Of a stretch of 64,000 nucleotides of DNA, positions 683-30,203 are shown in pieces. This DNA is from a bacterium. GTDB taxonomy: Bacteria; UBA8248. Below the pieces are notes generated by a model, which worked only from the letters and a program-made list of their open reading frames with translations, did no database searches and was not told the DNA's origin. Location: NCBI GenBank assembly GCA_965203325.1, contig OZ241875.1, positions 2,560,001 to 2,624,000 on the forward strand. The letters run 5' to 3'. How positions within the stretch are numbered: position 1 is the first letter of the stretch; each line of letters opens with the position of its first letter. Both the position numbers and the translations under genes were made by a program.

Positions 683-1022
683 ATCCCGCTCTCCCGCGTG
701 GTTTCAGGCAGTGGGGGGTTTCCAGCAGGGGTGAAATCTTTGTAGTTTCTTGAAACTATTGTGAGTAATGGTTTTTGGAGGTTTCTTTCGGAATTCGATT
801 TCCGCAATCCGTAATCAACTCGGCAGCGGATGAATTATAACTCCTGCGTAGCTCGGAGATCCTCTGTCGGAGCACCCTCCAAAATTCGGCTCGTGTCGGC
901 TTAGTTGCGGTCATGATCCGTCACTCTGCAACGTTGGTTCAGAAACCACTGGTCCACGCCCAGATGAAATGCCAGCCTTGCTGACTTGTTTCATCAGCCT
1001 GTTGGACCCTTACGTGATAATA

Positions 1023-3724: not shown

Positions 3725-4378
3725 TTTCTTGCCCTTATAGTGCTGCTACCCAAAACTGAGAACGTTGCGCTTGTTCGTACATAAGCAGCTCATTTGACCT
3801 TTCGTGCACATAGCATTCGAATCTCTTGCGCACCACCGAGAGATTGTTCCTAACGGGATAATGGCATCGGCGCTGAATCTTGATTAATGTTATCTCACCT
3901 GCGTTGACTGATAAAGGTCCCTCGTTGCTGCAAGCAGTTCCGACCCCCAGTGTTGCGGGAGACCTAAAAGTCATCGGCAAGCATGTGGTGAGAGACAACT
4001 TCTTAGTGAATTCCAAAACTATTCCATTATGAATTTTCCTGTGTGCTACCCGAGGTGGCCAATCAATTTCCGTATGCTTGCTAGTGATCGGTGAAAGCTA
4101 TACTGATGAAAGGGCTTCCTTGATAGATGCAAAAATCCTTCTGTGTACTATGGCCGTGTCAGCGCCGCTACGCAATTATCTCTTGACTACCTTATCACGC
4201 ATGCAGGATCCCGTACCGCATTGGAAGTTCGCTCGCCTTAAGTATATTTCTGCTACCGGAAATAGAACCATCATATTCTCGGCTATGCACGTCTCGCTCC
4301 CGGTGTACGTGCTGGACCCCTCATTGCTAATCAGGCCCGGCCAATCGAAGCCCTTCAATAGCGAGGGAAAACCACTCT

Positions 4379-8917: not shown

Positions 8918-9818
8918 ATTTTCTCTTCGGGTTAATCTTCAAATGTATACATGAAGAATCGGAATTCCCTAGTTTAATGCCTTGAATTAACTCAACACCT
9001 TCTGCTGCTTAGAGCCATTAATATGTATTGTAACAGAAGAGGGGTCGCCAGACTCCTGTTGTGCATCTTGCCCGGGCGCCACCTATCCATCTTTTTATGA
9101 ACTTAATCTGGGCCGATCCACCGCGTCGTCCGTCTTCAGAACAGTTAGGGATTTTCAACAGTAATGAAATCTCATTATCCCGTTGATTTCATTGAAATAT
9201 GTTGAATATCCGTAATCTCGCTCGGGGTTCGCCTTTCGCAGAGCGCAATTAAAACGGAAACGAGGAGAATCAAACCCCCGGGCATCTCGGCGCGGGTCTG
9301 TCGGAGTCCTCCCAAACCTGGCTTACAACGGCTTGAGCACAGCCAGTCACCAGCGATCCACAGTCTTGGTTCAGCAGCCACCGCTCCGCGCACCATGATA
9401 GCGCCTGATTCGTCGCCAGCGGTCTGGCAACCGCCACACAGCCCGTTTAAAATCTTTGGGACCAAGGTGCCAGAGATAGAGCTCCAGCGGTTCGGGTTAT
9501 AGCGCCTTGGATGGATTCGAGGATAGTCGTTCGTATCTCTCGGTTAATTGTTGAGACGCAGAAGAAATTACATTAAGGTTGATCAGGGCTTCAATCAAAG
9601 GCACCGGGATTACCGGAAAACGCTCACCCTTCCAGACGCGCCCTGTATGATGGACATGAAGCGTTTCAACGACATGCAGGCCGATGTATTGTCTGAGCTT
9701 TGGCGCATATACCTGGATACCGACAAGTCTTGAAGTGCGGAAACCGCTTGATTCTTTCTCAAAGAGTGTTTTTGACTGCGCTTTCCCGGCCGGATGAAAA
9801 TGAGACGAAGAGATACCG

Positions 9819-11063
9819 ATGCTGACGCTGAGCAGGCTGAAATCCCCAAAAGTTCTTATAGTTTTGCTGATTGTTTTTCTTATTTGCTTGTTGGCCGCTT
9901 TTGCGGGCGTGATGATCACTGTAAAACCGGTGTGGGCCTTCAGACTCTTTGGAATATCCGACAAGTTCAGAATTCTGAACTTTCTGGGCGTCGCTATGGG
10001 CGGCATCCTGCTCGCCATCCAGGCCGTACTATCCTACAAACGCGCCAAGGCGATGGAGGATGCTGCGAATGCGCAGGCCGGAGCTACTGCGGAGCAAGCA
10101 AAAGCCAACCAGAACACCGAGAAGGGACTGCGGCAGGAACGCCTGAGAAACGCCATCGAGCATCTGGGGCACCATTCGGACTCCGTGCGCCTTGGCGGGG
10201 CCTATGAACTCTTCCATCTGGCGCAAGATACCGACGACCTTCGCCAAACCGTTCTGGATATTCTCTGCGCCTATATACGCCGCACGACGGGCGAAGACGA
10301 GTATCGGGAACAACACAAGTCGAAACCCTCTGAGGAAATTCAAGGTTTGCTGACTTTGCTTTTCGTGCAGGAGCATGAAGTCTTCAAAGGTCTTCACATC
10401 AACTTGCAGGGGAGTTGGCTGAATGGAGCGGATCTAGGGGGAGCACACCTTGCAGAGGCCAATCTGGCTGGTGCGCATATGCGAGCGACTGATCTTGGAG
10501 ATTCATATCTCCAAGGTTCGAATCTAAATGGAGCACAGATGCAAGCGATTGATCTCAGTAGATCCTGCTTGCAAAGTTCTACGGTGGCGAGAACACAGAT
10601 GCAAGGCGCTTATCTGCTGGGAACACGGATGCAATGCGCTTACCTATCAGAGACGCAAATGCAAGGGGCTTATCTTTGCAGGACCGAAATGCAGGGGACT
10701 CTCTTTGCCAAGGTGCATATGCAAGGAGCCGGAAATTCGGTATGGGATATCGATATGTCTTTTCCAGAGCGCATCAAGGAGGCTATCGGGAAGGAAACCG
10801 ATTTTTCCGAGGTCATATTGCGTGGTGGGTTAAGTCAGGAAAACGTGGATTTTCTTGCCAAGGGATTGTCCGATGTGAGAAAGGATTGTCCCGATACGGG
10901 CGTATCCTATTGTGGGGATGCGCAGATGTTACGCGAGATGCTCGAGCCGCACATTGACAAGCCGACTGATTGGAATCTGAGGGAAGGTATGGAGGTTTAT
11001 ACCGGATCTTATACAAAGGAAGAAGCCGAAGTATGGATTGCCGTGTACGATAGGGTTTCATAG
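9819..11063 (+). CDS. Membrane-anchored pentapeptide-repeat protein
   Basis: Two N-terminal hydrophobic segments, SVRLGGAYEL motif, then A(D/N/Y)LxG-type pentapeptide repeats. Confidence 0.85.
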   Translation: MLTLSRLKSPKVLIVLLIVFLICLLAAFAGVMITVKPVWAFRLFGISDKFRILNFLGVAMGGILLAIQAVLSYKRAKAMEDAANAQAGATAEQAKANQNTEKGLRQERLRNAIEHLGHHSDSVRLGGAYELFHLAQDTDDLRQTVLDILCAYIRRTTGEDEYREQHKSKPSEEIQGLLTLLFVQEHEVFKGLHINLQGSWLNGADLGGAHLAEANLAGAHMRATDLGDSYLQGSNLNGAQMQAIDLSRSCLQSSTVARTQMQGAYLLGTRMQCAYLSETQMQGAYLCRTEMQGTLFAKVHMQGAGNSVWDIDMSFPERIKEAIGKETDFSEVILRGGLSQENVDFLAKGLSDVRKDCPDTGVSYCGDAQMLREMLEPHIDKPTDWNLREGMEVYTGSYTKEEAEVWIAVYDRVS

Positions 11064-11324
11064 CGGGCATCGACGGGGAATAAAAAAGCCGGAAATGAAC
11101 ACGGATCATACCGACGCTGAGCTAGTTAAAGAGTGGCTGTGATTTCTTGCTCAACCTTCACGATTCCACTGGGCGTTTTACGTTAATGGGCAAAATGACT
11201 GAGAATATCCTGGTTTCAAAGGCAATTACATACAAATGCCAAAGTCCGTTGACGCTAGTACCGGCTTGATTTGGGCTGCGCCTCGCTTATCCAATCTAAA
11301 GCTGCAGAGAAGAAGGCGCGATCA

Positions 11325-12188
11325 ATGACGACCCATGATGAAGGTATACAAGCGAAACTCGACGCAGCGCGTCGCACATTAGATGTTCTACGCGCCGAGG
11401 TTCGGACGTTTGCCCAAACACAGCGCGATAAAGTAGAGGTGATCCAAACTGGAGAGAAGTCCTGGAGTCCTAGACTTACGGATAAATTCGATGCGCCTCC
11501 GACAAAATGGTCCATCTTGATAGGAGAGATAGCTTATCATCTCAGATCGTTGCTTGATCATTTGGTTTATAAACTTGTTTGTGAAAACGGTGGAAATCCG
11601 ACCAAACAAAACGAATTCCCCATCGTTTGGGAAATAGACAAAGTTATCCATAAAGTAATCTATTCAGAAAAAGGTTCTGAATACGTGAAGAAAGGACGTG
11701 AATATATAGACAAGAAAGCACTTAAAGGGGTCGATGAACAGAAAAAGGCCAAAATTTTATTGAACCAGGGGTTTATCGCTCATGTAGGTGAGTATGGTTC
11801 CTACGATCTCAACGCCAATCCATTTGAGTTTAGTCATTTGGCATACCTTTGTAATGTGGATAAACACAGACATTTAGTTTCGGTTGAACCCAAACTAGGT
11901 GGTCTTACAGACGATTATCGTGTCCGTCAGGATGAGACTATAAAAAAGGGTGAACTTCCACCAAGGCTTTGCAACACTGATTTCGAAATAGATGTCTGCT
12001 TTCGTTTTGAACAAGACGATGATCGACCATCCGATTTGGCCGGGTCGGTTGACGATGTTCTGACGGATATCATTTTGGCTGTTGAACATACGATTTGCTA
12101 CATATCGGGTAGTTCATCTCGGCCGTTCGCCGATCTTGCCAACGACGAAAAATATCAACTGCGCCGCAGAGACCAGATAATGCCGTAG
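11325..12188 (+). CDS. Hypothetical protein, possibly HEPN-like
   Basis: Long AT-rich ORF; HLRSLLDHL and CNVDKHR motifs resemble a degenerate HEPN RxxxxH. Confidence 0.5.
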   Translation: MTTHDEGIQAKLDAARRTLDVLRAEVRTFAQTQRDKVEVIQTGEKSWSPRLTDKFDAPPTKWSILIGEIAYHLRSLLDHLVYKLVCENGGNPTKQNEFPIVWEIDKVIHKVIYSEKGSEYVKKGREYIDKKALKGVDEQKKAKILLNQGFIAHVGEYGSYDLNANPFEFSHLAYLCNVDKHRHLVSVEPKLGGLTDDYRVRQDETIKKGELPPRLCNTDFEIDVCFRFEQDDDRPSDLAGSVDDVLTDIILAVEHTICYISGSSSRPFADLANDEKYQLRRRDQIMP

Positions 12189-12753
12189 TGATACTGAAAA
12201 CTGTTGTCAGATATTGCGGTAGGGTCCTCAAGCGATGAATGAAAGGAAATGGCTGGAGGAATCTCGTGAACATGACGGGCCTTGATAATCATTTTAGAAA
12301 CCAGGCAAAAACGGACCGGAATTTCAATGATTTTTTCATGGGCCCGGGATCTTGTTTCCCTGCGCCACGCGACTCTTGGTTTCGAGTTCACGCATTGTCG
12401 TCCGCAGAGTTCGATCGATTGGACTATTCAAGCTCCGGTTTCGCTGTTTTTTGCTGGCATTTGCGGCGCAACTTCGATGTTACGGCTGATTTCGCGCCCA
12501 AGTTCGGCCCTCTTGAGTCGAGGGCTATGGCAATGTTTGACGCCTAGGCCATATCCCGGGAGCGGAGGAGGAATCGTGTGTGGGTCTTGGCGGCGGACAT
12601 TCCTTTGACGTTGTGCAGGTCGTTGCGATCATTGTAGCATGTGGTGGCAGGAGGTGCAGACTAAATTTGTAATCTTGCGGGTGTGCCCTTCCGTGACACG
12701 CGGAATCCTGGATTGGCGGGATAATCTCAGGTTGTCCGTTCTCTTCCCGAGAG

Positions 12754-13200
12754 GTGAGTGAGATGAAGAACGTTCTTGATGACGTGACCGACGAAAAGGT
12801 CGACGCCCAGCATATCAGTCGGCGGGTCAACGACTGGATACAGCGCGTGAAGAACCTCTACACCGAAATTGGCGAGTGGCTGCCGGACGGCTGGACCGCG
12901 CAGGAGGGAGAGTCGGTGTGCATGCACGAAGAAATGATGCGCAGGTTCAATGTGGCGTCAAGGCAGATTCCAACGCTCCTGCTCGTCAATGGTTCGGGGA
13001 ACAGCGCACGGCTCGAACCGCGCGGACTTTGGATCATCGGCGCGAATGGCCGGATTGATATGAAGTTTGGGAGCCGTCACTACCTCATCGTTGACGTGGC
13101 CGGCAGTTTTGAAACGCCGGATTGGCAGGTTTCGGACGCCGAACTGCGGCTCGACCGGGAAGCCCTGACGGAAAGCTGGCTCAAGCGGACACTATCGTGA
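12754..13200 (+). CDS. Hypothetical protein translationally coupled to the HEPN gene
   Basis: 148-aa ORF with a GAGG RBS-like sequence; its TGA overlaps the GTG start of the next gene. Confidence 0.65.
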   Translation: MSEMKNVLDDVTDEKVDAQHISRRVNDWIQRVKNLYTEIGEWLPDGWTAQEGESVCMHEEMMRRFNVASRQIPTLLLVNGSGNSARLEPRGLWIIGANGRIDMKFGSRHYLIVDVAGSFETPDWQVSDAELRLDREALTESWLKRTLS

Positions 13201-13658
13201 AAGACCTTGAGGCCATCGCCGCAGTGTATGAGCAAATAGACAATTTTCTGGAAAGCTGCCGGGATACGGCAGGTGGGACTGGCGAGCGTGACGAGCAAAT
13301 CGCGCTAAAGCAACGAATCAACGATCAGGCGTATTTCGTGCTGGCCTGGGGACAACTCGAGGCGGAAATAGAGGAGGCATGTCGGCAGGCAATTCGCCGT
13401 GGGCAGGAACACGGAGACTGGAAGTACCGTCGGGCGTGGTCGCTATACAACCCAGAAGACCGAAGGCTGTCGGGTTTGAGTTTAGAGGACCGATTGACGC
13501 TAGTCCTCGAAAAAGGCACGGAGTACTGGAAACAGGCGATGCAACATTATAATGTTCGTAACCAGATCGCTCATGGTGCTCTGCGGTCGGAAAGAATCGA
13601 CGTATCGAGTATCATCCAGGACTTCTATCGCATTCAATCATCACTGACACGTTCGTAA
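13197..13658 (+). CDS. HEPN-domain protein (putative RNase toxin)
   Basis: Helical protein with AYFVLAWGQLE and the canonical RxxxxH motif RNQIAH; GTGA overlap start. Confidence 0.75.
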   Translation: MKDLEAIAAVYEQIDNFLESCRDTAGGTGERDEQIALKQRINDQAYFVLAWGQLEAEIEEACRQAIRRGQEHGDWKYRRAWSLYNPEDRRLSGLSLEDRLTLVLEKGTEYWKQAMQHYNVRNQIAHGALRSERIDVSSIIQDFYRIQSSLTRS

Positions 13659-13801
13659 CTTTCTATTTTGACCGATTTTGCCTTGAAAAGTTCATCCTTT
13701 TTCGTCTCGAACCCGAACTTTTAAAGTTGTCTTTTCATCGACTACATCACCATTCTAATCTGAAACTTACCCGCATCACCCGCAAAAATTTTGAAGCCAA
13801 C

Positions 13802-14107
13802 TCAATCCCGCCCCGATTTGCCCGGCAATTCCGGCGCGACCTCGGAGATATTTTTGCTGATTTGCTCGATCTCTGCCTCGCGTCCAGCCCTCTCCATGTC
13901 GCGAATGATGGCCTGCGCGGTGAACATGGTTGAGCGCAACAAGTGGATTTCCGCTTCGGTTCGGGGCCATTCGCGGCGCTCCAAGGCTTCCATCACGAAC
14001 TCTACCACCAGTCGGTTGGGCGACATTTCGCGCTTTTCGGCCTCATTTTCAATTCGTTTCCACTGTTCGGGCGTGACTCTGATGTTCTTCTGTATCGTCT
14101 GAACCAT
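13802..14107 (-). CDS. Ribbon-helix-helix DNA-binding protein (relaxosome accessory-like)
   Basis: IQKNIRVTPEQWKRIENEAEKREMSPNRLV fits a beta-helix-helix pattern; AAAGGAG RBS upstream of ATG 14107. Confidence 0.6.
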   Translation of the reverse strand: MVQTIQKNIRVTPEQWKRIENEAEKREMSPNRLVVEFVMEALERREWPRTEAEIHLLRSTMFTAQAIIRDMERAGREAEIEQISKNISEVAPELPGKSGRD

Positions 14108-18122: not shown

Positions 18123-18932
18123 TCACCCCCAGGCAGCGAGGCTGGACATGACGGGCTCATCCACCACGATCTCGACCTGATCCCGGGAGAGCTTCTCGAA
18201 GGCGAGGCACATGGCGACCTCCTCCCATGAGTCGAGAGGTCCGTGCTCCTCTCCCGTGGCGAGTTCTATCACGGTGTAGCGCGGCGGGTAGACGGGCAGG
18301 CCCTTGTGCTCTCCCGATGAGTGATACGATCGGCGCGCGCAGGGAGTACATCTCACCCCTGCATCCGCATGGGCGCCGCAGTCCACGCAAAGCGACCGTG
18401 CCCGCCTGTCGTGATAGCGTTTCCTGCTCGCGGCGTTCTTGCGCGGACGGCGTTTATCTTCTTTTGCGGCGCACGAAGCGCACGTCGAAGCCTCATCGAC
18501 GACTTCCGCACCGCACCTGCCGCAAAGCCCTTTCGCTCTCCTGGCGGCGTAGAGCTTCCGTTCTTCAGCGCGCCTCGCCTCCCGGCAGGGTTCGCAGACG
18601 GCGCCAGCCTCGACGGGCTCGCGTCCGCAGCGCGGGCACAAGCCGGCCTCCACCCGCTCGCGCCTGCGCTTCCTCGCCCTCTCGCGCGCCATGCGGCGGC
18701 GGCTCTCGGGGCAGCGGCCGCCATATGGGGCTCCCCCCGCTCGGGCTTCGGCGTATCGGGCGCGTCGGGTCTCCCGGTCCCTCTCGAGGCAGGGTTCGCA
18801 CAGACTGCGCCCCGGCGCGGGAGGAATCTTTCCGCACCGGGGGCACATGCCCCGCGCGCGTCGGTCGGCGGTGCGTTTGCGGTGGCGCTCGCGCTCATAC
18901 GCGCGGGCCTTTTCCAGGTCCTTGTAGGGCAT
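18123..18932 (-). CDS. Basic protein with tandem CxxCG...CxxC zinc-ribbon repeats
   Basis: GGAGG RBS before ATG 18932; four units of an Arg-rich helix followed by CxxCG-x8-10-CxxC. Confidence 0.7.
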   Translation of the reverse strand: MPYKDLEKARAYERERHRKRTADRRARGMCPRCGKIPPAPGRSLCEPCLERDRETRRARYAEARAGGAPYGGRCPESRRRMARERARKRRRERVEAGLCPRCGREPVEAGAVCEPCREARRAEERKLYAARRAKGLCGRCGAEVVDEASTCASCAAKEDKRRPRKNAASRKRYHDRRARSLCVDCGAHADAGVRCTPCARRSYHSSGEHKGLPVYPPRYTVIELATGEEHGPLDSWEEVAMCLAFEKLSRDQVEIVVDEPVMSSLAAWG

Positions 18933-19026
18933 CCCGCCTCCCTCCCCGGGGTGGATGGAATCCGTGCGGCCGGCGCCTGGCCGGCAAGACGTCTTGCGGG
19001 CGGAAGTCCTCCCCGGGGGGACTTCC

Positions 19027-19323
19027 TCACCGGGTGAGCATCCGGGCCCACACGAGGTGCTCGCCCCACAGCTGCAGGCCGCTGCCGGGGACCCGGATCC
19101 CCGTGCAGACGATGAGTTCGTCCCGTGCGGGACGCATCTCGCGTACGGCTTTCCGCGAGGCCGTAGCTCTCTTCTTCTTGCGCCTCCCGCTCTCCCTGTC
19201 GGGCACGGGCCTGATGTCGCCATCGGCGGACTTGTAGCGTTTCACTTCGTAGCGCTCGTCCTCGAGGCCTCGGCCGAACAGGTGGGTGAGGAAAGTACTC
19301 GCTTCGGGTCCGGGTTTCCGCAT
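19027..19323 (-). CDS. Hypothetical basic protein
   Basis: AAGGAGG RBS; co-oriented with neighbouring genes. Confidence 0.4.
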   Translation of the reverse strand: MRKPGPEASTFLTHLFGRGLEDERYEVKRYKSADGDIRPVPDRESGRRKKKRATASRKAVREMRPARDELIVCTGIRVPGSGLQLWGEHLVWARMLTR

Positions 19324-19512
19324 CGCGCGCCTCCTTGGGTGGGTGGATGATGGCGGCGGAGGCGAGCCTCGAACGCGAGAAGACTCCCTCCCGGCTCCCC
19401 TTCGCCGCCCCCTCCCGGCCGGACTCCGCCTCCCGGTGGCGCAGAGCCACCACCGGCGGGAAAGACGGCGGTCCGTTCGTTCAGGGTGGTCTTCGTTCGG
19501 TTTGGGGGCCTT

Positions 19513-19854
19513 CTAGGGGAAGGGGATGTCCGGGTCCTGGCCGAACAGCTCTTGTTCCTCCAGTTCGCGGCGCCAGGCGTAGCGTCCCGTCCGGGCGGAC
19601 CACTCGAAGTCCTCTTCTTTCCCGTCGGGCAGTTCGTAGCGAGCGAAGGCGGACCAGTCCCCGTGGCGGAACCCCCGCCACAGGGCGCAGGAGAGAGCCG
19701 TGAGGAGGCACCAGAGGGCCGCACAGGCCCAGACGGCCCCCAGGGGGCGGAGGCCGATGCCTGCCGTGAGAGAGAGGATTGTGTCGAGGAGGGCCAGGCC
19801 AAGTCCCGCGAGTACGAGGACCCTCGCGCGGCGGGACGGTTTCCGGTTACTCAT
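19513..19854 (-). CDS. Small membrane protein (two TM segments)
   Basis: GGAGG RBS; two hydrophobic segments then an acidic tail. Confidence 0.6.
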   Translation of the reverse strand: MSNRKPSRRARVLVLAGLGLALLDTILSLTAGIGLRPLGAVWACAALWCLLTALSCALWRGFRHGDWSAFARYELPDGKEEDFEWSARTGRYAWRRELEEQELFGQDPDIPFP

Positions 19855-20479
19855 GGGTCGCGCCTCCGGTGTTGCGGGTGAGAGGAATGCGGGGGCGCCC
19901 GGCCTCTCCGGCCCGGCTACCGCGCCCCCTCACGGCCAGGCTCCGCCTCTCGCCGGCGCGGGGCCTGGGGGAGGCGCGCGATGAACGCCCCGGCGCCCGG
20001 GCGCTGGAAACCGGATATCGAAAACCCTTGCAAACGGGCGGTTTTTCAGTTTATTTCCGTGCGGTGCGGACTACCGTATGCACCCGGGATGAGCAAACGG
20101 GACGAAAGGGGAGACGCGCATGGAGAAGAACGCCGGAAGTGGTTCGATCATGCCCCAGGCGGAGCGCCGGAGTATTGCCGCGATCAGGCTGTCCGGGCCG
20201 GCCGGAAGAGGGTGATGGCGCAATGATCCGGCAGGCACGCCCCGGGATGCGCAGGGGTTTGATTCCCCTCGTTTTCGTTATGATTGCTTTCTGCGGAAGG
20301 TGGATTCCGGACGAGACCCGGGGGAAACGAATGCTTCTCGATGATATCAACGGGATCAGGAGATTTTACAGCCGCCGGAAACCCCCCACCGTCTCTAAAC
20401 ACGCGGAAGAGCGGGATGTATACCCCCTCCTGCCCGGCTCCTCGAACGGGGAAAGCGCACCGGAGATACCGGGCATATG

Positions 20480-20601
20480 AGCGAAGCGGGGCCGCCCGTT
20501 GTTCCCCCTCCCGGCCCGAGGACTCGAAAATCCGGCAAAAGGAGTGGTACGGCTTGCCCTCTCACGAGGGAAGCAACCAACGGGCAGCCCCCTTTTTCGC
20601 T
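20480..20601 (-). ncRNA. Conserved ~120-nt structured element, copy 1 (3' of lipoprotein 1)
   Basis: Closing stem GGGGCCGCCCGTTG / CAACGGGCAGCCCC; aligns with the copy at 22921-23039. Confidence 0.5.
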
Positions 20602-20602
20602 G

Positions 20603-22750
20603 CTACTCCTGCCTGTTCGCGGCGAAGCCGCCGACCATCCGGCCCTCGTGGCCGTATTCCGCGGAGAATTGCCCGGTCACGGCCCCCGGAACGCCGCCCT
20701 CGTCGGGATTCCGGAATTTTCCGTTCCACTCCCCGCCGGCCTCGGCCGTATCCCCGCCGATGGTCCACTTCGTCTTGCGGGGCGGCAGGGCATCGAGGAA
20801 GGTTCCTAAACCCGGAACAGTGACCGCCGCGCCGACGCCGTCGCCCAGAATGTCACCATTGTCATAGATGCCCTGTTCCATCAGCTCGACGGACCAGTCC
20901 CGGGCCTCGCCGTCAGCGCCGACCTTGAACTGGTCGAGGGCGCCCGTGACCGTGCTCTCGTGGAAGTCGGCCTCCAGCACCGCCCGCGCGGTGAAGCGGC
21001 CGGACTCGTTGGCGCCGCCGGTGGTGCTGCTCGTAAGGGCGTAGAGGCCGGCCGCGCTGCCGCTGTAGCTCGCGGTCCCGCCCACGGACCTCAAGTCATT
21101 ACGCGTCTCCGCGCCATAATTTCCCCCACCTATTGCGCTTGCAATGTAGTCCCCCTCGGCCGGCTTGTAGAGCCACCAGCCGTAATAGCTGTAATGGGCC
21201 AGCGGCGCCGTCACCCGGGCGCCCGGGTCGTCGGGCTTGAAGGTCCACGCGGCGGCGGTGTGGTTGAACACATTGGCCGCACTCAGAAGGCCAAGCGTGA
21301 ATCCGGCGGTGACATCAGAAGCTCCTAGAGCGTCGGTGGGGTTGGGTTTGACGTCGAGGCGGACGGCGCAGGTGTTGCCGGCGGTGGGCGTGCAGCTGTA
21401 GGTGCCGGGCACCCCGTGGAAGCTGCCGTCGATCTTCACGGCGATGTGGTTCTCCGGCAGTTCGAACTTCTTGAACCCGGCGCGCTGGTCGAAGCTCGGG
21501 CTCTCAATCTTGTCCCGGTTCCGATCGAGTGCCACGATCGTGGAAGGCAGCACCCCGCCGGTCAGGTCATACACCTCATCGAGGGGAAGGCCCTGCTCGC
21601 GCTCTTCTTCGCGCGTGTAGACGTAGGCTTCCGCCGTGCCGCCGTCGGCGAATTCGTGCGTGTACCGCTTGCCCTCCCAGCCGCGGTTGCCGGGAACCAT
21701 GGTCTCCTTGTCTTCCGAAAGGGATTGTGGGGAACCATGGGTGGCGTCCGCCCCGGTGGTGGTTACTCCGGCGATGCGCAACGCGAAAGTGTTCCTGCCT
21801 ATTATTGCGATGCTGACATCTCCGGCCCTTGCCTGGGGCTTCAGGTCGATCCCCGCATACAGCTTCGCAGCCTCTGCCACCATCTCCGCATCCGCGGCCT
21901 TCTGCTCGTCTTCCATGGCCTTATCGAAGGCGGCTTGCGCCGTTTGGATCGGCGCCGCCGCATTGTCCGCCTCTCGCACATACGTAGCCTTTTCCGCGTC
22001 GGTCAGGTCCGCGCCATCCGCAATCGCGTCGTTCAGAGCGGTGAGGGCACTGTCGGCGGCGTCGAGCTGCGCCTGCGTTGGCGTCGAACCGAAAAGCGCC
22101 TCGAGGGCCGCCTGGAGCGCCGTGGAAGCATCCGACAGCGCCGTCCTCTGGTTCATCCGGCGCGTCGCGGTGTCGATACCGCCCTGCGCACCATCTACGG
22201 CAGCCACGGCGTCGTCGAGTTGCGTCATGTACATGGCCTTGTCTTCATCGCTCACGTCGTCCGCATCTTCCAATGCCTGCCTGAGAGCGCGGATGGCTTC
22301 GTTGGCGGCGTCAACCATCTCCTGCGTCGACAGGTCGGACGTGTCGATCATGCCGGCCGCGGCCGCCAGAGCCGTTTTCTGCGCATCGGCCCGAGCCATC
22401 GTCGCGAGCGCCGCCACGCGGGCATCGACCGCCGCCTGAAGCATCTCGCCCGCCGTGGCGGTAACGTCGTCCTTCACCGCATCGTAAGCCGCCTGGGCGG
22501 CTTCCGCCGTGGCGGCCGCCGCGATGTTCGCGAGCGCCGCATTAATCGCGACCTGTGCGGGCGTCAAGCATTCACCACCCACATATTGATTGCCCGCGGC
22601 CGTGCACGTCTCCTCCGGTGTCGGCATCGGGGGCGGTTCCTCAACTGCAGCCGTCCCGCCGCCGCCGCCGCAGCCGGCCAGCGCGATGGCGAACACGGCC
22701 GCCAGCGCGAAGGCGTAGAGCCTGGTTATCGGTTTCTCTTTGAACGTCAT
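20603..22750 (-). CDS. Surface lipoprotein with TbpB/fHbp-like C-terminal beta-barrel, paralog 1
   Basis: Signal peptide with lipobox LAGC then poly-Gly; Ala-rich helical N-half; C-terminal ASYSGSAAG...VTGQF...MVGGFAA. Confidence 0.8.
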   Translation of the reverse strand: MTFKEKPITRLYAFALAAVFAIALAGCGGGGGTAAVEEPPPMPTPEETCTAAGNQYVGGECLTPAQVAINAALANIAAAATAEAAQAAYDAVKDDVTATAGEMLQAAVDARVAALATMARADAQKTALAAAAGMIDTSDLSTQEMVDAANEAIRALRQALEDADDVSDEDKAMYMTQLDDAVAAVDGAQGGIDTATRRMNQRTALSDASTALQAALEALFGSTPTQAQLDAADSALTALNDAIADGADLTDAEKATYVREADNAAAPIQTAQAAFDKAMEDEQKAADAEMVAEAAKLYAGIDLKPQARAGDVSIAIIGRNTFALRIAGVTTTGADATHGSPQSLSEDKETMVPGNRGWEGKRYTHEFADGGTAEAYVYTREEEREQGLPLDEVYDLTGGVLPSTIVALDRNRDKIESPSFDQRAGFKKFELPENHIAVKIDGSFHGVPGTYSCTPTAGNTCAVRLDVKPNPTDALGASDVTAGFTLGLLSAANVFNHTAAAWTFKPDDPGARVTAPLAHYSYYGWWLYKPAEGDYIASAIGGGNYGAETRNDLRSVGGTASYSGSAAGLYALTSSTTGGANESGRFTARAVLEADFHESTVTGALDQFKVGADGEARDWSVELMEQGIYDNGDILGDGVGAAVTVPGLGTFLDALPPRKTKWTIGGDTAEAGGEWNGKFRNPDEGGVPGAVTGQFSAEYGHEGRMVGGFAANRQE

Positions 22751-22920
22751 TTAGCGAGTCCTCCTGAATACATGGAAAAAGGAATTCGGCCTGGCCAGAG
22801 AAAGGGCCGACACCCCTCAAAGGGCTGCTTTGAGGGGTTGAAAGAACCCCTGAAGATGGGAATTGCTGCGACACGATCCCCGAGGTGCAGGCCGAGTCGG
22901 GGTGCCGGCTGCTTTCATGA

Positions 22921-23039
22921 AGCGAAAACAGGGGCTGCCCGTTGTTCCCCCTCCCGGCTCGAGGACTCAAACTCACAACCGGGAGGGGTACAGTTTGCTC
23001 TCACGAGGGAAGCAACCAACGGACAACCCCCTTTTCGCT
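22921..23039 (-). ncRNA. Conserved ~120-nt structured element, copy 2 (3' of lipoprotein 2)
   Basis: Closing stem GGGGCTGCCCGTTG / CAACGGACAACCCC; shares blocks CCCGTTGTTCCCCCTCCCGGC and CTCTCACGAGGGAAGCAACCAACGG with copy 1. Confidence 0.5.
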
Positions 23040-23116
23040 CTGCTTGAGATTTGCTGCCCGCCCAAGGCCCCGGGGCCGTGAAGCCCCGGAAGCCTGAGGC
23101 GTCGTGCGCTTCGCTC

Positions 23117-25291
23117 CTACTGCTGCTTGTTCACGCCGAAGGCGCCGACCATCTTCCCGGACGAGCCGTACTCGGTGTAGAACGTGCCGGTCCCGACCTT
23201 CGGAACCCCGCTGGCGTCCGTTTCGGTGGCAGCGGTGTCGTAGAGCGTTCCCGCCCACCAGCCGGAGGCGGCAGCGGCCGTCCCGCCGATGGTCCAGACC
23301 GTATCGTCGAGCGCAGCGCGGCCAATGACACCCGAGGGGCCAACGTCAGCTTCCTTCAGCTCGACCGACCAATCCCGGTCCATGCCATCGGCGCCCTTGA
23401 ACATGTCGATGGTGCCAGTGATCTTGTTGTCGCTGAAGTCGGCGTTAAGCGTCGCCCGCGCGGTGAAGTGGCCGGCGTCGTTCGTGCCGCCGGTCGAACT
23501 CGAGAGAGCGTACTTGCCGGCCGCGCCGCCCATGTAGGTCGCCGTGCCCTGCAAGTTGTCGAGATCGGCGGCGGCCGGGACGGCGCCCTTGTTGTCCACG
23601 AATGCGCTCGCGGTGAAGGTGTTGCCGTCCTCGGACTTGTGGATCCACCAGCCGTAGGAGGCGTAGATGGCGTCCGGCATGCCCATGACCCTGGCGTTCG
23701 GGTCGGCCGGCTTGAAGGTCCAGGTGCCGCCGGTAGCGCCGGTCCCAGTCTGAGTGAACGCATTGTCGCCATCGGCTGTCTCGCCGAGTCGGAACCCGTT
23801 TGCGGCTAGCCGGACTGCGCAGGTGCTGGCGGTCCCAGCCACGCAGTAGAAGTTGCCGGGCACCCCGTGGTAGCTGCCGGGAATGATCACCCGCTCCCTA
23901 TTCTCCGGCAATGGGTACTCCTTCGTCCCGGCAGTCAGGTCGAAGCCCGGGATGGCGACGTTCGACGTAGGATAACGAGTCGGATTGGTGGTTTGGTCGA
24001 GCGCAAGTTCACCGTCGGCTAACAGGTACTCGAACTCGTCGCTGGTATCGGCCGCGCCGAACTTCTTGCCCTGCGTCGGCTCGCCGACGTTCGAGTAGAC
24101 CATCGCCTCGTAGGTGCCGTCGCCATCGGGCTCGGCCGTGTACCTCTTGCCTGCCCAGCCATGGAGCTTGGCGACCATCGTCTTCTTGTCTTCCGACAGG
24201 GGGACGGCTGCTGTGTGCGCGGTGTCGCTGCCGTCGCCGATGCTCACCATGATGAGCGTGTCGACGAGGGATTGGCCGGGGACGCCGTTGGCGGGGTCGT
24301 CGGCAGTGTTGGCCACGTTGTAAGAGGCGGTCCGGTCATCGACGGCGAAGGTGCTTCCTTCGCGGATGTCACCCTTCGGCTCGCTGATCCCCGCATACAG
24401 CTTCGCGGCCGTGGCGGCCATGGCTGCGGCCTCTTGCATGGCGGCCATATTGTCGGCATCGTCCTTGGCGTCTTTCGCCGTCTGGATCGGCGCCGCCGCG
24501 TTGTTGGCCTCACGCTGATACGGAGCCTTCTCATCGTCGGTCAGGTCCCCGCCGCCCGCAATCGCGTCGTTCAGAGCCATGAGGGCACTGTTGGCGGCGT
24601 CGAGCTGCGCCTGCGTTGGCGTCGAACCGGAAAGCGCCGCGAGGGCCGCCTGCAATCTCATGGAAGCGCCAGACAATGCATCCATCTGGTTCATCCGGCG
24701 CGTCGCGGTGTCGATACCGCCCTGCGCCATGTTCACGGCAGCCACGGCGTCGTCGAGCTGCGACATGTACATGGCCTTGTCGGCATCGCTCACGTCGTCC
24801 GCGTCGGCCAGCGCCCCTCGAAGCCCTTCGATGGCCATGCGTGCGGCGTCAACCGCTGCCTGCGTCGACAGGTCGGACGTGTCGATCATGCCGGCCGCGT
24901 CCGCCAGAGCCATTTTCTGCGCGTCCACGCGGGCCGCCATCTCGATGGCCATGATCCGGGCATTGACCGCCGCCTGAAGCATCTCGCCCGCCGTGGCGGT
25001 AACGTCGTCCTTCACCGCATCGTAAGCCGCCTGGGCGTCTTCCGCCGTGGTGGCCGCCGCGATGTTCGCGAGCGCCGTGTTAATCGTGACCTGTGCGGGC
25101 GTCAAGCATTCACCATTCACATATTGATTGCCCGCGGCCGTGCACATCTCCTCCGGTGTCGGCATCGGGGGCGGTTCCTCTTCAACTGCAGCCGTCCCGC
25201 CGCCGCCGCCGCAACCCGCCAGCGTCAGCGCGAAGACCGCCGCCAGCGCGAAAGCGTAAAACCTGTTAATATACTTGTCTTTGAACATCAT
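23117..25291 (-). CDS. Surface lipoprotein with TbpB/fHbp-like C-terminal beta-barrel, paralog 2
   Basis: Lipobox LAGC; N-half highly similar to 20603-22750; C-terminal ATYMGGAAGKY...MVGAFGV. Confidence 0.8.
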   Translation of the reverse strand: MMFKDKYINRFYAFALAAVFALTLAGCGGGGGTAAVEEEPPPMPTPEEMCTAAGNQYVNGECLTPAQVTINTALANIAAATTAEDAQAAYDAVKDDVTATAGEMLQAAVNARIMAIEMAARVDAQKMALADAAGMIDTSDLSTQAAVDAARMAIEGLRGALADADDVSDADKAMYMSQLDDAVAAVNMAQGGIDTATRRMNQMDALSGASMRLQAALAALSGSTPTQAQLDAANSALMALNDAIAGGGDLTDDEKAPYQREANNAAAPIQTAKDAKDDADNMAAMQEAAAMAATAAKLYAGISEPKGDIREGSTFAVDDRTASYNVANTADDPANGVPGQSLVDTLIMVSIGDGSDTAHTAAVPLSEDKKTMVAKLHGWAGKRYTAEPDGDGTYEAMVYSNVGEPTQGKKFGAADTSDEFEYLLADGELALDQTTNPTRYPTSNVAIPGFDLTAGTKEYPLPENRERVIIPGSYHGVPGNFYCVAGTASTCAVRLAANGFRLGETADGDNAFTQTGTGATGGTWTFKPADPNARVMGMPDAIYASYGWWIHKSEDGNTFTASAFVDNKGAVPAAADLDNLQGTATYMGGAAGKYALSSSTGGTNDAGHFTARATLNADFSDNKITGTIDMFKGADGMDRDWSVELKEADVGPSGVIGRAALDDTVWTIGGTAAAASGWWAGTLYDTAATETDASGVPKVGTGTFYTEYGSSGKMVGAFGVNKQQ

Positions 25292-25526
25292 TTAGTGAGT
25301 CCTCCTGAATACACAGTAGAAAAAGGGATTTTCCGTGAATTTCCGGCTTTCTCCGATTAACCTCCTTTCGTCAGCTTTTTTTTCGGGCCTTCACAAACTG
25401 GTGATTCGCATTTTGGGCCGCCTGAAACGCGGCGGACTTGAACCCTTTCATGCTCCGGGCCGGTAGTGAGTCTTTCCGCGAGAGGCGGATTCCTTCGGTA
25501 TGCGTCCACCTTTCCCGGCCTGGCCG

Positions 25527-25727
25527 CCGTTAATTGATGTTATCGGACTCCAGAAACCCCGTTTTCCGCCGAAAAACCCGTTTCGGGGCGCATTCGGGCC
25601 GCACATGAGCGAAACATGAGCGAAAATAGACGCAAAACGGCGCCCGAAACCCCTCTGGAGACGCCGGAATTGCGCTTGACATGGCCGTGAGAGGTGTTAT
25701 ATTTTCTGATAACATCAATTATCGGAC
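25527..25727. promoter_or_regulatory. Predicted invertible promoter segment bounded by inverted tyrosine-recombinase sites
   Basis: Site A CCGTTAA-TTGATG-TTATCGGAC (25527-25548); site B TCTGATAA-CATCAA-TTATCGGAC (25705-25727); the two 6-bp spacers are reverse complements. Confidence 0.7.
25676..25703 (+). promoter_or_regulatory. Sigma70-type promoter inside the predicted invertible segment
   Basis: TTGACA (25676-25681), 16-bp spacer, TGn-TATATT (-10 hexamer at 25698-25703) in otherwise GC-rich DNA. Confidence 0.7.
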
Positions 25728-25840
25728 TCCAGAAACCCGCCGTTTCGCCGGTATTCCCCTGCGAAACGGCTTTTTTTGTGGAAATTCCCCGCCGTCGTCT
25801 ATACTTGGTAATCGAGGAGGCGCTCGATCGGCCTCAGGGA

Positions 25841-26773
25841 ATGGAAACGGCCGCCGACCCGGAACAGAACATCGCTTTGACGAGGAGGCCGGCCCGACCG
25901 GCCCGTGCGGCCGCCTACCTGGCGAAGGCGTCGATGTCTGAGAACACGCGGCGAGTGTACGAGACGGCGCTCAGGAGGTTCGAGCGCTCGGGAAACCCCG
26001 AGACCGACGCCGGGATAGCGGCGTACCTGGGGGATCTCTACGAGGGGGGGCACTCGGCGGCCGTGGCCGCGATGGCGGTCGCGGCGCTTCGCTTCCGGGC
26101 GAAGCTGAACGACCGGCCCTCCCCGGTGGGGGCGGCCTCGGAGCGGGTGCTGGCCGGCTTCAGGCGCCTGGCCGCAGAGCGCGGCCGCGGCCAGGTGGCG
26201 GGGGTGCGCTGGGAGCAGGCGGACCGCGCGGCGGCGCTGGCCGAGGGGACGGGGACACTGGCCGGTCTGCGAGACGCGGCGATCGTGGCGGTGGCGAGCG
26301 ACGCCCTGCTCCGGGTGTCGGAGGTCGAGGCGCTCGACGTCGAGGACGTGGACCTGGACGAGCAGACGGTGCTGATCCGCCGCTCGAAGACCGACCAGGA
26401 GGCCGAGGGCGTCGTGCAGTTTCTGGGCGAGCCGACGGTGGCGCGCGTCCGGGCCTGGCTGGCGCGCGCGGGTCTCGGGGAGGGAGCGCTCTTCCGGGGC
26501 GTGTACAAGGGGGGACGACTTCGGCCCGGGCGCCTGACGGAGAGGAGCATCCGGAGCATCATCGCGCGGTGGGGGAAGGCCGCGGGCGTGGAGGGGCGCA
26601 TCAGCGGGCACAGCCTGCGCGTGGGGGGCGCGCAGAGCCTGGCCACGGCGGGGGCGTCGCTGGTCGAGATGCAGATTGCCGGGCGCTGGCAGTCGCCGGT
26701 CATGCCGGGGCGCTACGCGCAGGGACAACTCGCGAAACAGGGCGCGATGGCGAGGCTGCGCTACGGGCGGTGA
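25841..26773 (+). CDS. Cre-like tyrosine recombinase
   Basis: Catalytic set LLRVSE (R), RSKTDQ (K), GHSLR (HxxR), GRW (W), RYAQ (Y); start codon uncertain. Confidence 0.9.
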   Translation: METAADPEQNIALTRRPARPARAAAYLAKASMSENTRRVYETALRRFERSGNPETDAGIAAYLGDLYEGGHSAAVAAMAVAALRFRAKLNDRPSPVGAASERVLAGFRRLAAERGRGQVAGVRWEQADRAAALAEGTGTLAGLRDAAIVAVASDALLRVSEVEALDVEDVDLDEQTVLIRRSKTDQEAEGVVQFLGEPTVARVRAWLARAGLGEGALFRGVYKGGRLRPGRLTERSIRSIIARWGKAAGVEGRISGHSLRVGGAQSLATAGASLVEMQIAGRWQSPVMPGRYAQGQLAKQGAMARLRYGR

Positions 26774-26802
26774 AGTCCGTCCGTCTTCTCCCGAATATCT
26801 CC

Positions 26803-27522
26803 CTACCGCCTCTTCTTTCTCCGGGCGGCTCTCTCCTCGGACGTGGAAGTCCACCTCCGGGCGGAGGCCCACTTCTCGAGGTCTTCGAGCAGGTAGCGCA
26901 CCCGGTATCCGATGCGAAGAAAATCCGGCCCCTCGCCGCTCACGCGGTAGCGCTCCAGCGTCTTGGGCGAGAGGCCGAGCCAGGCGGCCGCCTCCCGCGT
27001 GTTCAGGTGGTTCACCTCCGCGAGTTCATCGACGTCTCCCGCGGCCCCGGGTTCCCCGGCGGCGTCCCACGTCCCGTCGAACGGGTCGGGCAAGTCCGCG
27101 AGCCTCTCGCGTATGGCGCGGACCTCCTCTCCCGTCGCGTTGGCCGCCATCCAGGCGCGCACCCGGTCGAAGGTCTTGAGATACGGCGAGGCGCCCCGGC
27201 GCAGCCTCCCCACGAAGGAGGGATTCCCCACGGTCTCCTCGCCCAGGATCGAGACCTTGGTCCCGCTCACCGCGAGAAACGCCTCGACCTCGGCCCGCAG
27301 GAGCGGTCTCAGGGGCGGGTACCCCATGAACGCGAGCACCCGGTCCGCCGTGTCGACCCGAAGGGGCCGCCCCCGGGCGTACAGTCCCACGAAGCCGGGA
27401 ATCCCCAGCGCGCCCACCCCGAAGCGCCTCGCGCTCATCCCTCGGCGCGCGCGCCAGAGCGCAATGCTCCGGCGCAGCCGCTCGTCCAGCGGGGTGCCGG
27501 TATCGTCGTCGAACGCGGTCAT
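26803..27522 (-). CDS. Multi-HTH protein: two Cro-like repeats plus a C-terminal excisionase-like HTH
   Basis: Repeats G.P.FVG...G......T.DRV.A.M; C-terminal LNTREAAAWLGLSPKTLERYR..GEGPDF.RIG.RVRY. Confidence 0.8.
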   Translation of the reverse strand: MTAFDDDTGTPLDERLRRSIALWRARRGMSARRFGVGALGIPGFVGLYARGRPLRVDTADRVLAFMGYPPLRPLLRAEVEAFLAVSGTKVSILGEETVGNPSFVGRLRRGASPYLKTFDRVRAWMAANATGEEVRAIRERLADLPDPFDGTWDAAGEPGAAGDVDELAEVNHLNTREAAAWLGLSPKTLERYRVSGEGPDFLRIGYRVRYLLEDLEKWASARRWTSTSEERAARRKKRR

Positions 27523-27760
27523 GGCGCGCGAACATAAGGAAAGTGCGAGCGCCCGTTCAATCGTTGTTTCTAGCGCGGAAGGTACACCCGGGAAGAGTCC
27601 GCGCCTGCGTCGGTGCGCGGATCGCTCATCGGTTCAGCCTGAAATCAAGGGGGTTTTCCCGAAAACGAGGGTCGCCGGAGAACGTGCAGCGAGACGCTGC
27701 GGAAAAAAAGGAAGGACGCCGCCCCCCGGGCGAGAGCTCGAAAGCCTCTTTCGTTCACGC

Positions 27761-27885
27761 CGCGGCGCTCTGTTTCGCGAGTCGTCCCTGCGCATGACCG
27801 GCGATTGGCGGCGCCCGGCGAGTTGCATCTCGACCGGAGAAGCCCCTGCCATGGCAAGGCGCTGCGCGCTGCCCGTCCGCAGGGC
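27761..27885 (-). pseudogene. Degenerate fragment of the recombinase 3' end in inverted orientation
   Basis: ALRTGSAQRLAMAGASPVEMQLAGRRQSPVM matches SLRVGGAQSLATAGASLVEMQIAGRWQSPVM; a short deletion removes the catalytic Tyr codon. Confidence 0.75.
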
Positions 27886-28098
27886 GAAACGGCGCCGATT
27901 CCCTTGTTTCATTCGTTTTTATCGCATCGTATGCTGATGTTCCGGGTCGTCCGCCAAATACAATACGGCCAAGCCGAAATAGGCGGACATTCCTTCGTGG
28001 ATTGTATGCCAACGGCCCGGATTCTGGAGGAAATAAAAAATATTCGGCCGGGTAGGCGGGGCGCAGCAATGCCTCCGCCTACCCGGCCTGCCACCCCA

Positions 28099-28336
28099 TC
28101 GTAATCGTTCAACCAAGCCGTGACGGATTAGGTCTCAGAGCTAAACAGAGACGAGTTGACGGTAACCTCTACGAGAAGAAAGTCGATGTCGGAATGCTAT
28201 CCATGAACCGAAATTGCCCAAATATTCTGCGGACTTGGGTGGTACCGAAGAATGAGGCCGGACCAGCTACGTTCAGACAGCCACCGAACTACCGCTATTT
28301 GGGTGCTTCCATCACGGCTTGGATGAACACTTACGA
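28099..28336. mobile_element. MITE-like element with ~29-bp imperfect terminal inverted repeats
   Basis: TCGTAATCGTTCAACCAAGCCGTGACGGA ... TCCATCACGGCTTGGATGAACACTTACGA; no transposase inside. Confidence 0.55.
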
Positions 28337-28880
28337 GCGCTCACGGACGCTCGCCCGCCGTGATGCGCTGGAGTTTGAATGAGTCCGCTTTCGGCTTGAT
28401 TACGGGTTGGGGAAGGCGAATTCCGGCAGATATGGACGAGACATATATCCGACATGATATCAATAGGTTATACGGATTCCATCGCCGATGAGAACGGCCC
28501 GGAATATCCGATGAGGCTAATTTATCGAAAAACCCCGTCAATTTATCGATATTTATCGAATTTTTCACATATTATTTTTCACATTTTTCGGGTTCTGCGC
28601 CTCGCCGGAGCGACCACCCGGATCCTTCGATCCGCGCCGCCGCCTGAAAAACCCCAGGGGGCCATCTTGGGAAACTCGATGACGGCCCGTGCGGCCGTCC
28701 GCGCGCGGGCCTTCACGGCGCCCGCATCGAAGGCAAGCGGCATCCCGCCGCCATCATGGGACGGGATGCCCGAAAAGTCGAATTTCGAGTGAAGCCGCCC
28801 CGGCCCGCAGATTTCTCCGGGGGCGCCCGGCTTGTTCCGCTCCCCGGCGGAGGGGCGGTTCCCGCTTCCTGCGGGGAGCG

Positions 28881-30203
28881 TCAGCGCACGATTGTCCCGG
28901 CGACATCCGGCTTTCGTATCTCGAGGCGATCCTTCATGCAGATGTCATGGGCGGCGTTGACGAACACGTGGGTGCCTTTGGTCAGATCATGAACCGATGC
29001 GTGCTCGCCCTCCTTCGGGTAGTAGCCCGTGCCGCCGCCGCTGGCGCGGCCCTGGGGGCCGTAGCAGATCGCCGGAATCCCGGCGCGGGTCAGCGGTGCG
29101 GTGTCGGCGTACCAGCCGTCCCAGGTGATCTCGGGGCGTTCGCCCCAGACGAGGTCGTGCGAGGCGGAGATGCTGCGCACGACGTATTCCTCGGGCGATA
29201 TTTCGGCCGCGTGCGCCGTCTGGATGACCTGTAGCTCGATCTCCATGGCGGGGTCCTTATCCCGCAACTGCCGGATCACTTGGCCCACTTCGGCGATGAT
29301 ATCGCCGTGCATCTGGCCTGGCATGATCCCGACTTCCAGATAGAGCCGGCAGAAGCACGGCAGCTTGCTCGCCCGGAAGGGATGCCCTCCTTCGATGGCG
29401 ATGATGTTGACGTTTCCGGCCGGCTCCCCCTTGTAGCGGGTCCTGCCCAGGTAGTCCTCGCCCCAGCTCTTGAGGGCGGGTATGGCGTTCAGCATCTTCT
29501 CGATGGCGTCTTCGCCGGGCTTGATCTGCACCGTGGAGCCGCCGCGGCTGTAGGTGGCGGCCGGGTTGCCCCGGGTCATGAGTTCCATGAACACGTATCC
29601 GCCCGAGGACACCGAAATCCGGTTGGATGTCGGCTCGGGTATGACCACCATGTCGGCGGTGATGCCGTTGTTGACCATGAAGCGGGCGCCGATTCCGCAG
29701 CCCCGGTAGCGGGCGCCCTGGTAACGCCCCACCGGCGTGTGGCAAGTCTCGCCGACGACGCCGGCGATCATCAGGTTGCCGCGCAGCTTTGCCTTGGAGC
29801 GGGCCATGGCCTCCACGGCGAGGATGGCCGACGCGTGACCGCTCTTCATGTTGTAGGTGCCCATGCCGTAGATCCACTCGCCCTCGCGCCAGGATTTCGG
29901 CTGGTACCCCGGCCCGAGATCGCGGATGCCCTCCTCGTCGCCGCCGTAGGTCGTGTCCAGGTGGCCGCAGTACATCAGGGTGGGGCCGTCACCCGTTCCA
30001 TCGAGCTGGCCGTAGACGTTGTACCGATCCGGCTCGACCTCCTGCATCCAGGTCCGCAGGCCCGCCGCCCGGAAGCGGTCGGCGAGATATTCGGCGAGCG
30101 CCTTCTCGCCGCCCTCGGGGCTCGGGATGTCGACCATCTCCATGGTCAACTGGGCGATAGCTTCCTCGTCGACGTATGCCAGTGCGTCTTCGACCATGCT
30201 CAT
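28881..30203 (-). CDS. M20/ArgE-DapE-family metallopeptidase/deacylase
   Basis: DIPSPEGGE, CGHLDT, IYGMGTYNMKSG, IPEPT, CYGP, EHAS. Confidence 0.85.
   Translation of the reverse strand: MSMVEDALAYVDEEAIAQLTMEMVDIPSPEGGEKALAEYLADRFRAAGLRTWMQEVEPDRYNVYGQLDGTGDGPTLMYCGHLDTTYGGDEEGIRDLGPGYQPKSWREGEWIYGMGTYNMKSGHASAILAVEAMARSKAKLRGNLMIAGVVGETCHTPVGRYQGARYRGCGIGARFMVNNGITADMVVIPEPTSNRISVSSGGYVFMELMTRGNPAATYSRGGSTVQIKPGEDAIEKMLNAIPALKSWGEDYLGRTRYKGEPAGNVNIIAIEGGHPFRASKLPCFCRLYLEVGIMPGQMHGDIIAEVGQVIRQLRDKDPAMEIELQVIQTAHAAEISPEEYVVRSISASHDLVWGERPEITWDGWYADTAPLTRAGIPAICYGPQGRASGGGTGYYPKEGEHASVHDLTKGTHVFVNAAHDICMKDRLEIRKPDVAGTIVR

Follow-up and report, generated by a model that had tools for sequence, protein, structure and literature searches.

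The 64,000-nucleotide stretch analysed here (the window; contig OZ241875.1, positions 2,560,001 to 2,624,000, from a bacterium assigned to UBA8248) contains a short DNA segment with the layout of an invertible promoter, lying between a gene for a Cre-like tyrosine recombinase and two divergent genes for predicted lipoproteins. The segment is bounded by two lox-like sites in inverted orientation. Site A (25527-25548) reads CCGTTAA-TTGATG-TTATCGGAC, with its spacer at 25534-25539, and its arm similarity reaches approximately 14 bp to either side (25520-25553). Site B (25705-25727) reads TCTGATAA-CATCAA-TTATCGGAC, with its spacer at 25713-25718; its left arm runs directly into the -10 box of a promoter and for that reason is degenerate past 8 bp. 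Read directly, each 6-bp spacer is the exact reverse complement of the other, and from spacer to spacer the two delimit a segment of 185 bp (25534-25718), the sites being 179 bp apart from start to start. A repeat search recovered the same arrangement as a pair of inverted arms of 28 nt (25520-25547 and 25705-25732; 82% complementary), bearing out an earlier note on this DNA, which had described two tyrosine-recombinase sites with reverse-complementary 6-bp spacers. In the window there are two copies of the 14-mer core TAATTGATGTTATC, one per strand, and two of the 20-mer arm TTATCGGACTCCAGAAACCC, where 100 shuffles of the window gave an expectation of 0.00 for each. The same search returned a direct repeat that the earlier note does not contain (25540-25571 and 25719-25750; 32 nt, 84%). 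This duplication of the strong arm raised the idea of a one-way lock of the lox66/lox71 type, which was discarded because only one of the four arms, that on the promoter side, is degenerate and neither orientation yields a doubly weak site.

A near-consensus sigma-70 promoter occupies the right-hand end of the segment (25676-25703, plus strand), with TTGACA at 25676-25681, a 16-bp gap and TGtTATATT, of which the -10 hexamer TATATT lies at 25698-25703. It agrees with the consensus at 11 of 12 positions and has a TG before the -10 box; two overlapping matches were found where 0.2 were expected from shuffles. In the assembled orientation this promoter points towards the recombinase side, that is, OFF for the lipoprotein genes. 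Just outside site B, between that site and the start of the recombinase gene, lies a predicted intrinsic terminator (25739-25777, plus strand) made up of a hairpin (25739-25770) and a run of seven T residues (25771-25777). The free energy of the hairpin is -26.9 kcal/mol versus -11.5 in shuffles (z -5.7), and this location suggests that the OFF-state promoter would fire into a terminator after approximately 70 nt, with an efficiency that is itself a prediction. Right behind the T-run is a putative independent promoter for the recombinase (25778-25805, plus strand), GTGGAA-16-TATACT. The motif (T/G)TGGAA-16-TATACT is kept in 12 of 18 related loci inspected, though the hairpin preceding it varies, and its -35-like element is TTGGAA in most paralogues and relatives and GTGGAA at this locus; a second promoter here is a plausible prediction. 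At the other, inner end of the segment (the Q end) a minus-strand terminator was sought, and the fold there is no better than in shuffles (z 0.67).

The recombinase gene (25841-26773, plus strand) is intact and encodes a protein of 310 amino acids (aa). This protein matches the Pfam family Phage_integrase (PF00589; E 8.6e-19, 68.4 bits, above the gathering cut-off of 27.1), and among solved proteins its closest relative is Cre (E 4e-13 over residues 91-306), with Cre or its engineered derivative Tre accounting for 17 of its 18 matches in the PDB. All six catalytic residues are present (R158, K183, H257, R260, W283 and Y292), and the protein shares with Cre a Trp at the position of the second His and a C-terminal GAMxRL tail. 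The Cre-like assignment is based on this nearest solved relative and on these residues. The protein is not a FimB or FimE (21 and 18.3 bits versus cut-offs of 222 and 221 for the NCBIfam models PRK09871 and PRK09870), nor is it a XerC, XerD or XerA (at best 64.6 bits for XerA_Arch versus 220, with XerC at 48.5 versus 335).

On the opposite side of the segment, a leader of 235 nt (25292-25526, minus strand) separates site A from the start of lipoprotein 1 (23117-25291, minus strand; 724 aa), which is followed by its paralogue lipoprotein 2 (20603-22750, minus strand; 715 aa). Both proteins carry the lipobox LAGC followed by GGGG. From 19800 to 25600 the minus strand showed neither a consensus promoter nor a consensus terminator, and, since there is none between the two genes, the sequence suggests that lipoprotein 2 is probably co-transcribed with lipoprotein 1. 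The lipoproteins match no Pfam family. The C-terminal domain of lipoprotein 1 scores 19.3 bits (E 0.0011) with NF041636, a TbpB-like, Slam-type model, below its cut-off of 80, and the Atlas feature matches of the lipoproteins to TbpB_B_D clusters reach 0.92-0.93. A profile built from eight lipoprotein paralogues gave 0 matches to PDB sequences, and models of the C-terminal domain are poor, with predicted local distance difference test (pLDDT) values of 39.2 from the single sequence and 41.7 from the eight paralogues. These signals point weakly to the TbpB/Slam type of surface lipoprotein; that the targets are surface lipoproteins is likely, not established. A SlipAM/Slam homologue (PF04575, 95.5 bits, in a 500-aa open frame) is encoded elsewhere in the genome at 1776843-1777712 (L094) and may serve the phase-variable lipoproteins as their translocon.

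When the whole 4.39-Mb genome (G000) was searched for the site core, the switch proved to be one of 16, and at each of these loci the two sites are exactly 179 bp apart. Both outer flanks are common to all of them: one (O1) consists of the leader followed by a surface-protein gene, and the other (O2) of TCGGACTCCAGAAACCC, a hairpin and a T-run, followed at most loci by a recombinase. The inner ends, namely the promoter end and the Q end, are also conserved across the loci. The segment promoter is present at 16 of 16 loci and in other genera. At 15 of 16 loci a T-run (at least 5 T within 75 nt) is found on the O2 flank and is missing from the O1 flank; two of these loci have no recombinase (genome 2672538 and 2765584). 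In diverged copies the sequence of the hairpin varies and the T-run stays. The leader contains a motif, CATACCGCAGGAAT..TCTCGCGGAA, which lies beside site A at approximately 25455-25500 (sense on the minus strand) and is conserved in both classes of target and across genera. No sign of a structured leader RNA was obtained (z +1.2; no consensus structure by alifold from 25 distinct leader sequences), and the motif may be a site for an accessory protein or a signal in the 5' untranslated region. No Rfam family was assigned to the switch and leader in a scan of 20000-29000, where the only matches were two below threshold, to sRNA-Xcc1 (28.8 bits versus 53) and beta_tmRNA (14.5 versus 84). At the studied locus the inner Q arm (25540-25559) is identical to the outer O2 arm (25719-25738) over 20 nt, and at the other loci of the genome the Q arm is GGCCCCCAGAAGCCC or a near variant; the identity may be the footprint of gene conversion.

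Seven of the 16 switches have lipoproteins of the studied family as their targets and nine have large autotransporter-like proteins, which are 1000-1800 aa long and contain Calx-beta, cadherin-like and FN3 domains. The C-terminal 332 aa of these large proteins have no Pfam match even at E 1, and this part was grouped with autotransporter beta-domains by the Atlas feature search only (0.98, 25 of 30 matches). The 3' end of one such gene forms the start of the window (1-603, plus strand); its switch is at genome 2556928, approximately 3 kb before the window begins, and is OFF, with a truncated recombinase. The recombinase itself is intact and open at six loci, a deleted or truncated remnant at seven (six recognised by tblastn and one by DNA alignment) and absent from three, the five intact paralogues of the studied copy being 77-96% identical. 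The remnants at 1029515, 3371529, 3869516 and 4230850, and probably at 1262093, have one internal deletion in common, after which the last 8 codons follow directly on approximately residue 70, the join lying at a repeated GCGATGGCG; the deleted module thus seems to have been copied after the deletion. Approximately 1 kb beyond the intact gene, a fragment at 27758-27888 (minus strand) is approximately 70% identical to the C-terminal 48 residues of the recombinase. Similar fragments are found near two other switch loci, and the one in the window may be a remnant of a second recombinase copy.

Eight types of spacer occur over the 16 loci, and the same spacer is found at both sites in 15 of them, the exception being genome 3371529, where the spacers are mismatched. 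Approximately 2.6 within-locus matches would be expected by chance if the right-hand spacers were paired at random, as calculated from the spacer counts. Judged against the conserved outer flanks, 13 segments are OFF, with the promoter towards O2 and the recombinase side, and three are ON, with the promoter towards the surface gene (genome 2078030, 2672538 and 3869516); the locus at 2078030 combines the ON orientation with an intact recombinase.

A sister genome of the same genus (G012) contains 15 switch loci, one of which is ON. Five orthologous pairs were mapped between the two genomes through unique flanking DNA, and whereas three of these have the same orientation, two are opposite, namely 2672538 in G000 versus L073, and 4230850 in G000 versus the first switch of L066. 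In blastn alignments of both opposite pairs the flanks run plus/plus at 86-97% identity, with a central block of approximately 200 bp reversed and overlaps at the sites. An intact recombinase is lacking from these loci in either genome, and because the 3.2-kb O2 flank is collinear the opposite pairs carry the same recombinase deletion. Opposite orientations at loci with no intact recombinase therefore imply a recombinase acting in trans. The DNA around the switch loci is often rearranged between G012 (L066-L079) and G000; at L067, for instance, the flank matches window 18168-20167, yet adjoins a switch of the autotransporter type. Chromosomal rearrangement may be concentrated at the switch modules.

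Taken together, we consider it likely that the 185-bp segment is a reversible phase-variation promoter switch, flipped by a Cre-like recombinase and belonging to a family of 16 paralogous switches. The recombinase would exchange strands within the spacers and so invert the segment, and the acting enzyme could be the product of the neighbouring gene or of any of the five other intact paralogues. In the OFF state the promoter would fire into the terminator, and the lipoprotein genes appear to lack a promoter of their own; after inversion it would read through site A and the 235-nt leader into both lipoprotein genes. The recombinase would probably be expressed from its own weak promoter behind the terminator, which would make switching at this locus reversible rather than self-locking. 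Six intact paralogues, near-identical arms at all loci and opposite orthologous pairs with no intact recombinase together argue that the switch is reversible and draws on a shared pool of recombinases. The combination of identical spacers within a locus and different spacers between loci would mainly confine recombination to partner sites. The earlier note had placed a near-consensus promoter facing an intact Cre-like recombinase gene, with the lipoprotein genes divergent from it, and had predicted that the segment inverts. The layout is as it described, and inversion is borne out for the family, with three of the 16 paralogous loci flipped and two of the five orthologous pairs opposite; the homologous loci in both orientations that it had suggested looking for are thus found both among paralogues and among sister-genome orthologues. 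Its proposal that flipping turns the lipoproteins ON stands as far as the promoter would then face genes for which no other consensus promoter was found.

Several points weigh against this interpretation. Some spacers are common to several loci (TTGACG at four, TTGCCG at four, and TTGATG at the studied locus and at 1308424), so that spacers isolate the loci incompletely, and because the paralogues arose by duplication the matching of spacers must in part have been inherited; each spacer type nonetheless had to change at both sites of its locus. No flipped copy of the studied locus was found, the closest locus in G012 (97% recombinase identity, TTGATG spacer) having the same orientation. Both genomes are metagenome assemblies in which each orientation is a consensus call, and contigs over the switch from four public runs are pieces of approximately 100 bp, none with enough flank across a site and none listed with a strand-changing join, and are uninformative on inversion. 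Terminator efficiency and the second promoter are predictions from sequence.

A rival reading is a coupled arrangement, in which the OFF-state promoter drives the recombinase by reading through the terminator, so that the ON state starves the locus of recombinase and biases or locks the switch. The earlier note had favoured such self-locking, with the promoter driving the recombinase and inversion removing that drive. The promoter does point towards the recombinase at 13 of 16 loci, only 137 bp separate its -10 box from the ATG, and the excess of OFF loci is what would be expected if the OFF state supplied recombinase; moreover, the candidate independent promoter has a poor -35 element (GTGGAA) and falls below the scan threshold. 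A strong hairpin and T7 lie in between, however, with a promoter-like motif behind them, and the terminator flank is kept at 2672538 and 2765584, where there is no recombinase to drive. Five other intact paralogues with near-identical sites could act in trans, and loci whose recombinase is absent or truncated differ in orientation between genomes. The ON locus at 2078030 is neutral on this question. We therefore find self-locking unsupported and regard this coupled arrangement as improbable, and the contrast that the earlier note drew with the fim-type layout would then be misplaced, since with a predicted independent recombinase promoter the locus appears closer to fim than was claimed.

Less probable again is that the family once inverted and that the studied locus, or the whole family in this strain, is now fixed with old events frozen in place. 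Ten of the 16 loci lack an intact recombinase, one (3371529) has mismatched spacers, and contigs of approximately 100 bp can demonstrate no heterogeneity within a sample, all of which would fit a fossil. The studied locus nevertheless keeps both sites, matching spacers, the promoter and a recombinase with six catalytic residues; six recombinase copies stay open; and the opposite orthologous loci lie within flanks that are 92-97% identical, so the inversions are recent. It is also conceivable that a mobile insertion with terminal inverted repeats, resembling a miniature inverted-repeat transposable element, landed in either orientation and never inverted in place, given that the element is short, repeated in many copies and many phyla and bounded by inverted repeats. 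This we consider very remote, because both outer flanks accompany the element in conserved form at every locus, the spacing of the sites is always 179 bp, orthologous loci differ only in the orientation of the DNA between the sites, and the repeats consist of arms and an asymmetric spacer linked to a tyrosine recombinase.

Relatives of the recombinase extend well beyond this genus. Of 53 loci encoding recombinase relatives, 24 have, no more than 900 bp upstream, a perfect inverted repeat with arms at least 12 bp long and 78-263 bp apart, versus 3 of 51 control regions and 17 of 1060 shuffles. At most of the 18 related loci that were read closely, a TTGACA-type promoter stands at one end of the element, in most cases facing the recombinase and in L028 and L039-L041 facing away. 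A comparison of four loci from Latescibacterota (L039-L041 and L061) showed no inversion; three of them are collinear, and in the fourth similarity ends at the site. Metagenome-assembled genomes labelled Poribacteria, Latescibacterota, Binatia, Entotheonella, Nitrospinota and others encode recombinase relatives that have inverted sites upstream. A scan of metagenome contigs with an 18-mer made up of the site A core and flank gave nine matches, all unrelated (26-53% GC, no second site) and attributable to chance. Parts of the stretch occur in 20 of the 21 public runs listed, among which there is no RNA run; the runs are labelled as sponge, coral or marine metagenomes, and the host bacterium is apparently sponge-associated. 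Tentatively, and with more doubt than confidence, we propose that leader, switch, terminator and recombinase make up a portable cassette which has spread horizontally among unrelated phyla of sponge and coral bacteria, multiplying and capturing surface-protein genes, and that spacer barcodes and interchangeable recombinases allow 16 genes to be switched independently without scrambling the chromosome. If true, the cassette family would amount to a programmable multi-channel network for antigenic variation, possibly one that helps its bearers escape the phagocytic cells of the host.

Looking around the switch, the gene convergent with the recombinase (26803-27522, minus strand) encodes a 239-aa protein with a C-terminal, excisionase-type HTH_17 domain. 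It is present in full at 10 of the 16 loci and in part at one. Among the 53 related loci it is found only in the five from the sister genome, and is therefore genus-specific, which ruled it out as a core partner of the switch. Further away, a low-GC block at approximately 1000-14000 (41-55% versus approximately 60-70% around it) contains genes for an AAA_15/AAA_21 ATPase (2123-3724, minus strand), a 1512-aa AAA/HEAT protein (4379-8917, minus strand) and a pentapeptide-repeat protein (9819-11063, plus strand), and looks like an acquired island of the defence type.

Much work has been done on promoter inversion in gut bacteria and in pathogens; a full-text literature search for work on it in sponge symbionts returned no paper. 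That a family of 16 switches controls lipoproteins and autotransporter-like adhesins suggests a role for surface variation in the symbiosis between sponges and microbes. The loci are concrete targets to follow in metagenomic long reads, and their near-identical Cre-like recombinases and differing spacers provide a natural set for studying how spacer identity confines recombination.

In its function, the switch belongs with the invertible-promoter phase switches of fimS, Bacteroides and RecV. As at fimS, where FimB and FimE control the type 1 fimbriae of E. coli, a tyrosine recombinase gene adjoins a short invertible segment carrying the promoter of a surface structure, and the recombinase probably has a promoter of its own. 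A terminator also has a role in the orientation-dependent transcription of fimE, a further likeness. In contrast to fimS, the recombinase lies outside the FimB/FimE family, the lox-like sites have an asymmetric 6-bp spacer where fimS has 9-bp inverted repeats, the genome has 16 copies instead of one, and the targets are lipoproteins and autotransporter-like proteins. With Cre/loxP of phage P1 the system shares its catalytic residues, including the Trp that replaces the second His, and the design of two inverted arms of approximately 13-14 bp on either side of an asymmetric spacer, which determines directionality. The spacer here reads 6 bp versus 8, however, sequence similarity is low, and the reaction is chromosomal promoter inversion, whereas Cre serves in plasmid-dimer resolution or cyclisation. 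The mpl genes of Mycoplasma penetrans (the P35 family) are likewise a set of many paralogous lipoprotein genes, each with a private invertible promoter and independently switched, but with unrelated recombinases and repeats and with two recombinases encoded elsewhere in the genome rather than in the copied module.

In Bacteroides, invertible promoters are reported to control capsule, S-layer and SusC/D-like loci under Mpi and local Tsr recombinases (PMC10403206, PMC4611039). In both systems a host-associated symbiont varies its surface combinatorially through a large number of promoter inversions in one genome, and some switches have an adjacent tyrosine recombinase. Here, unlike in Bacteroides, the recombinase lineage is nearest to Cre, the whole module is duplicated as one unit, the spacers vary by locus, and the bacteria are uncultured and come from sponge and coral metagenomes. 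RecV of Clostridioides difficile is described as a tyrosine recombinase working in trans on several switches (PMC7446863, PMC9286219), with Rho termination reported to help the OFF state of at least one of them (PMC7446863). Action in trans and a contribution of termination to the OFF state would be features in common, whereas RecV is encoded by one gene and its repeats are dissimilar, and the present genome has six intact paralogues and near-identical sites. What is unusual in the present family is a module of leader, switch, terminator and recombinase that is duplicated 16 times, with spacers that vary from locus to locus, an OFF state insulated by a predicted terminator and relatives across many phyla.

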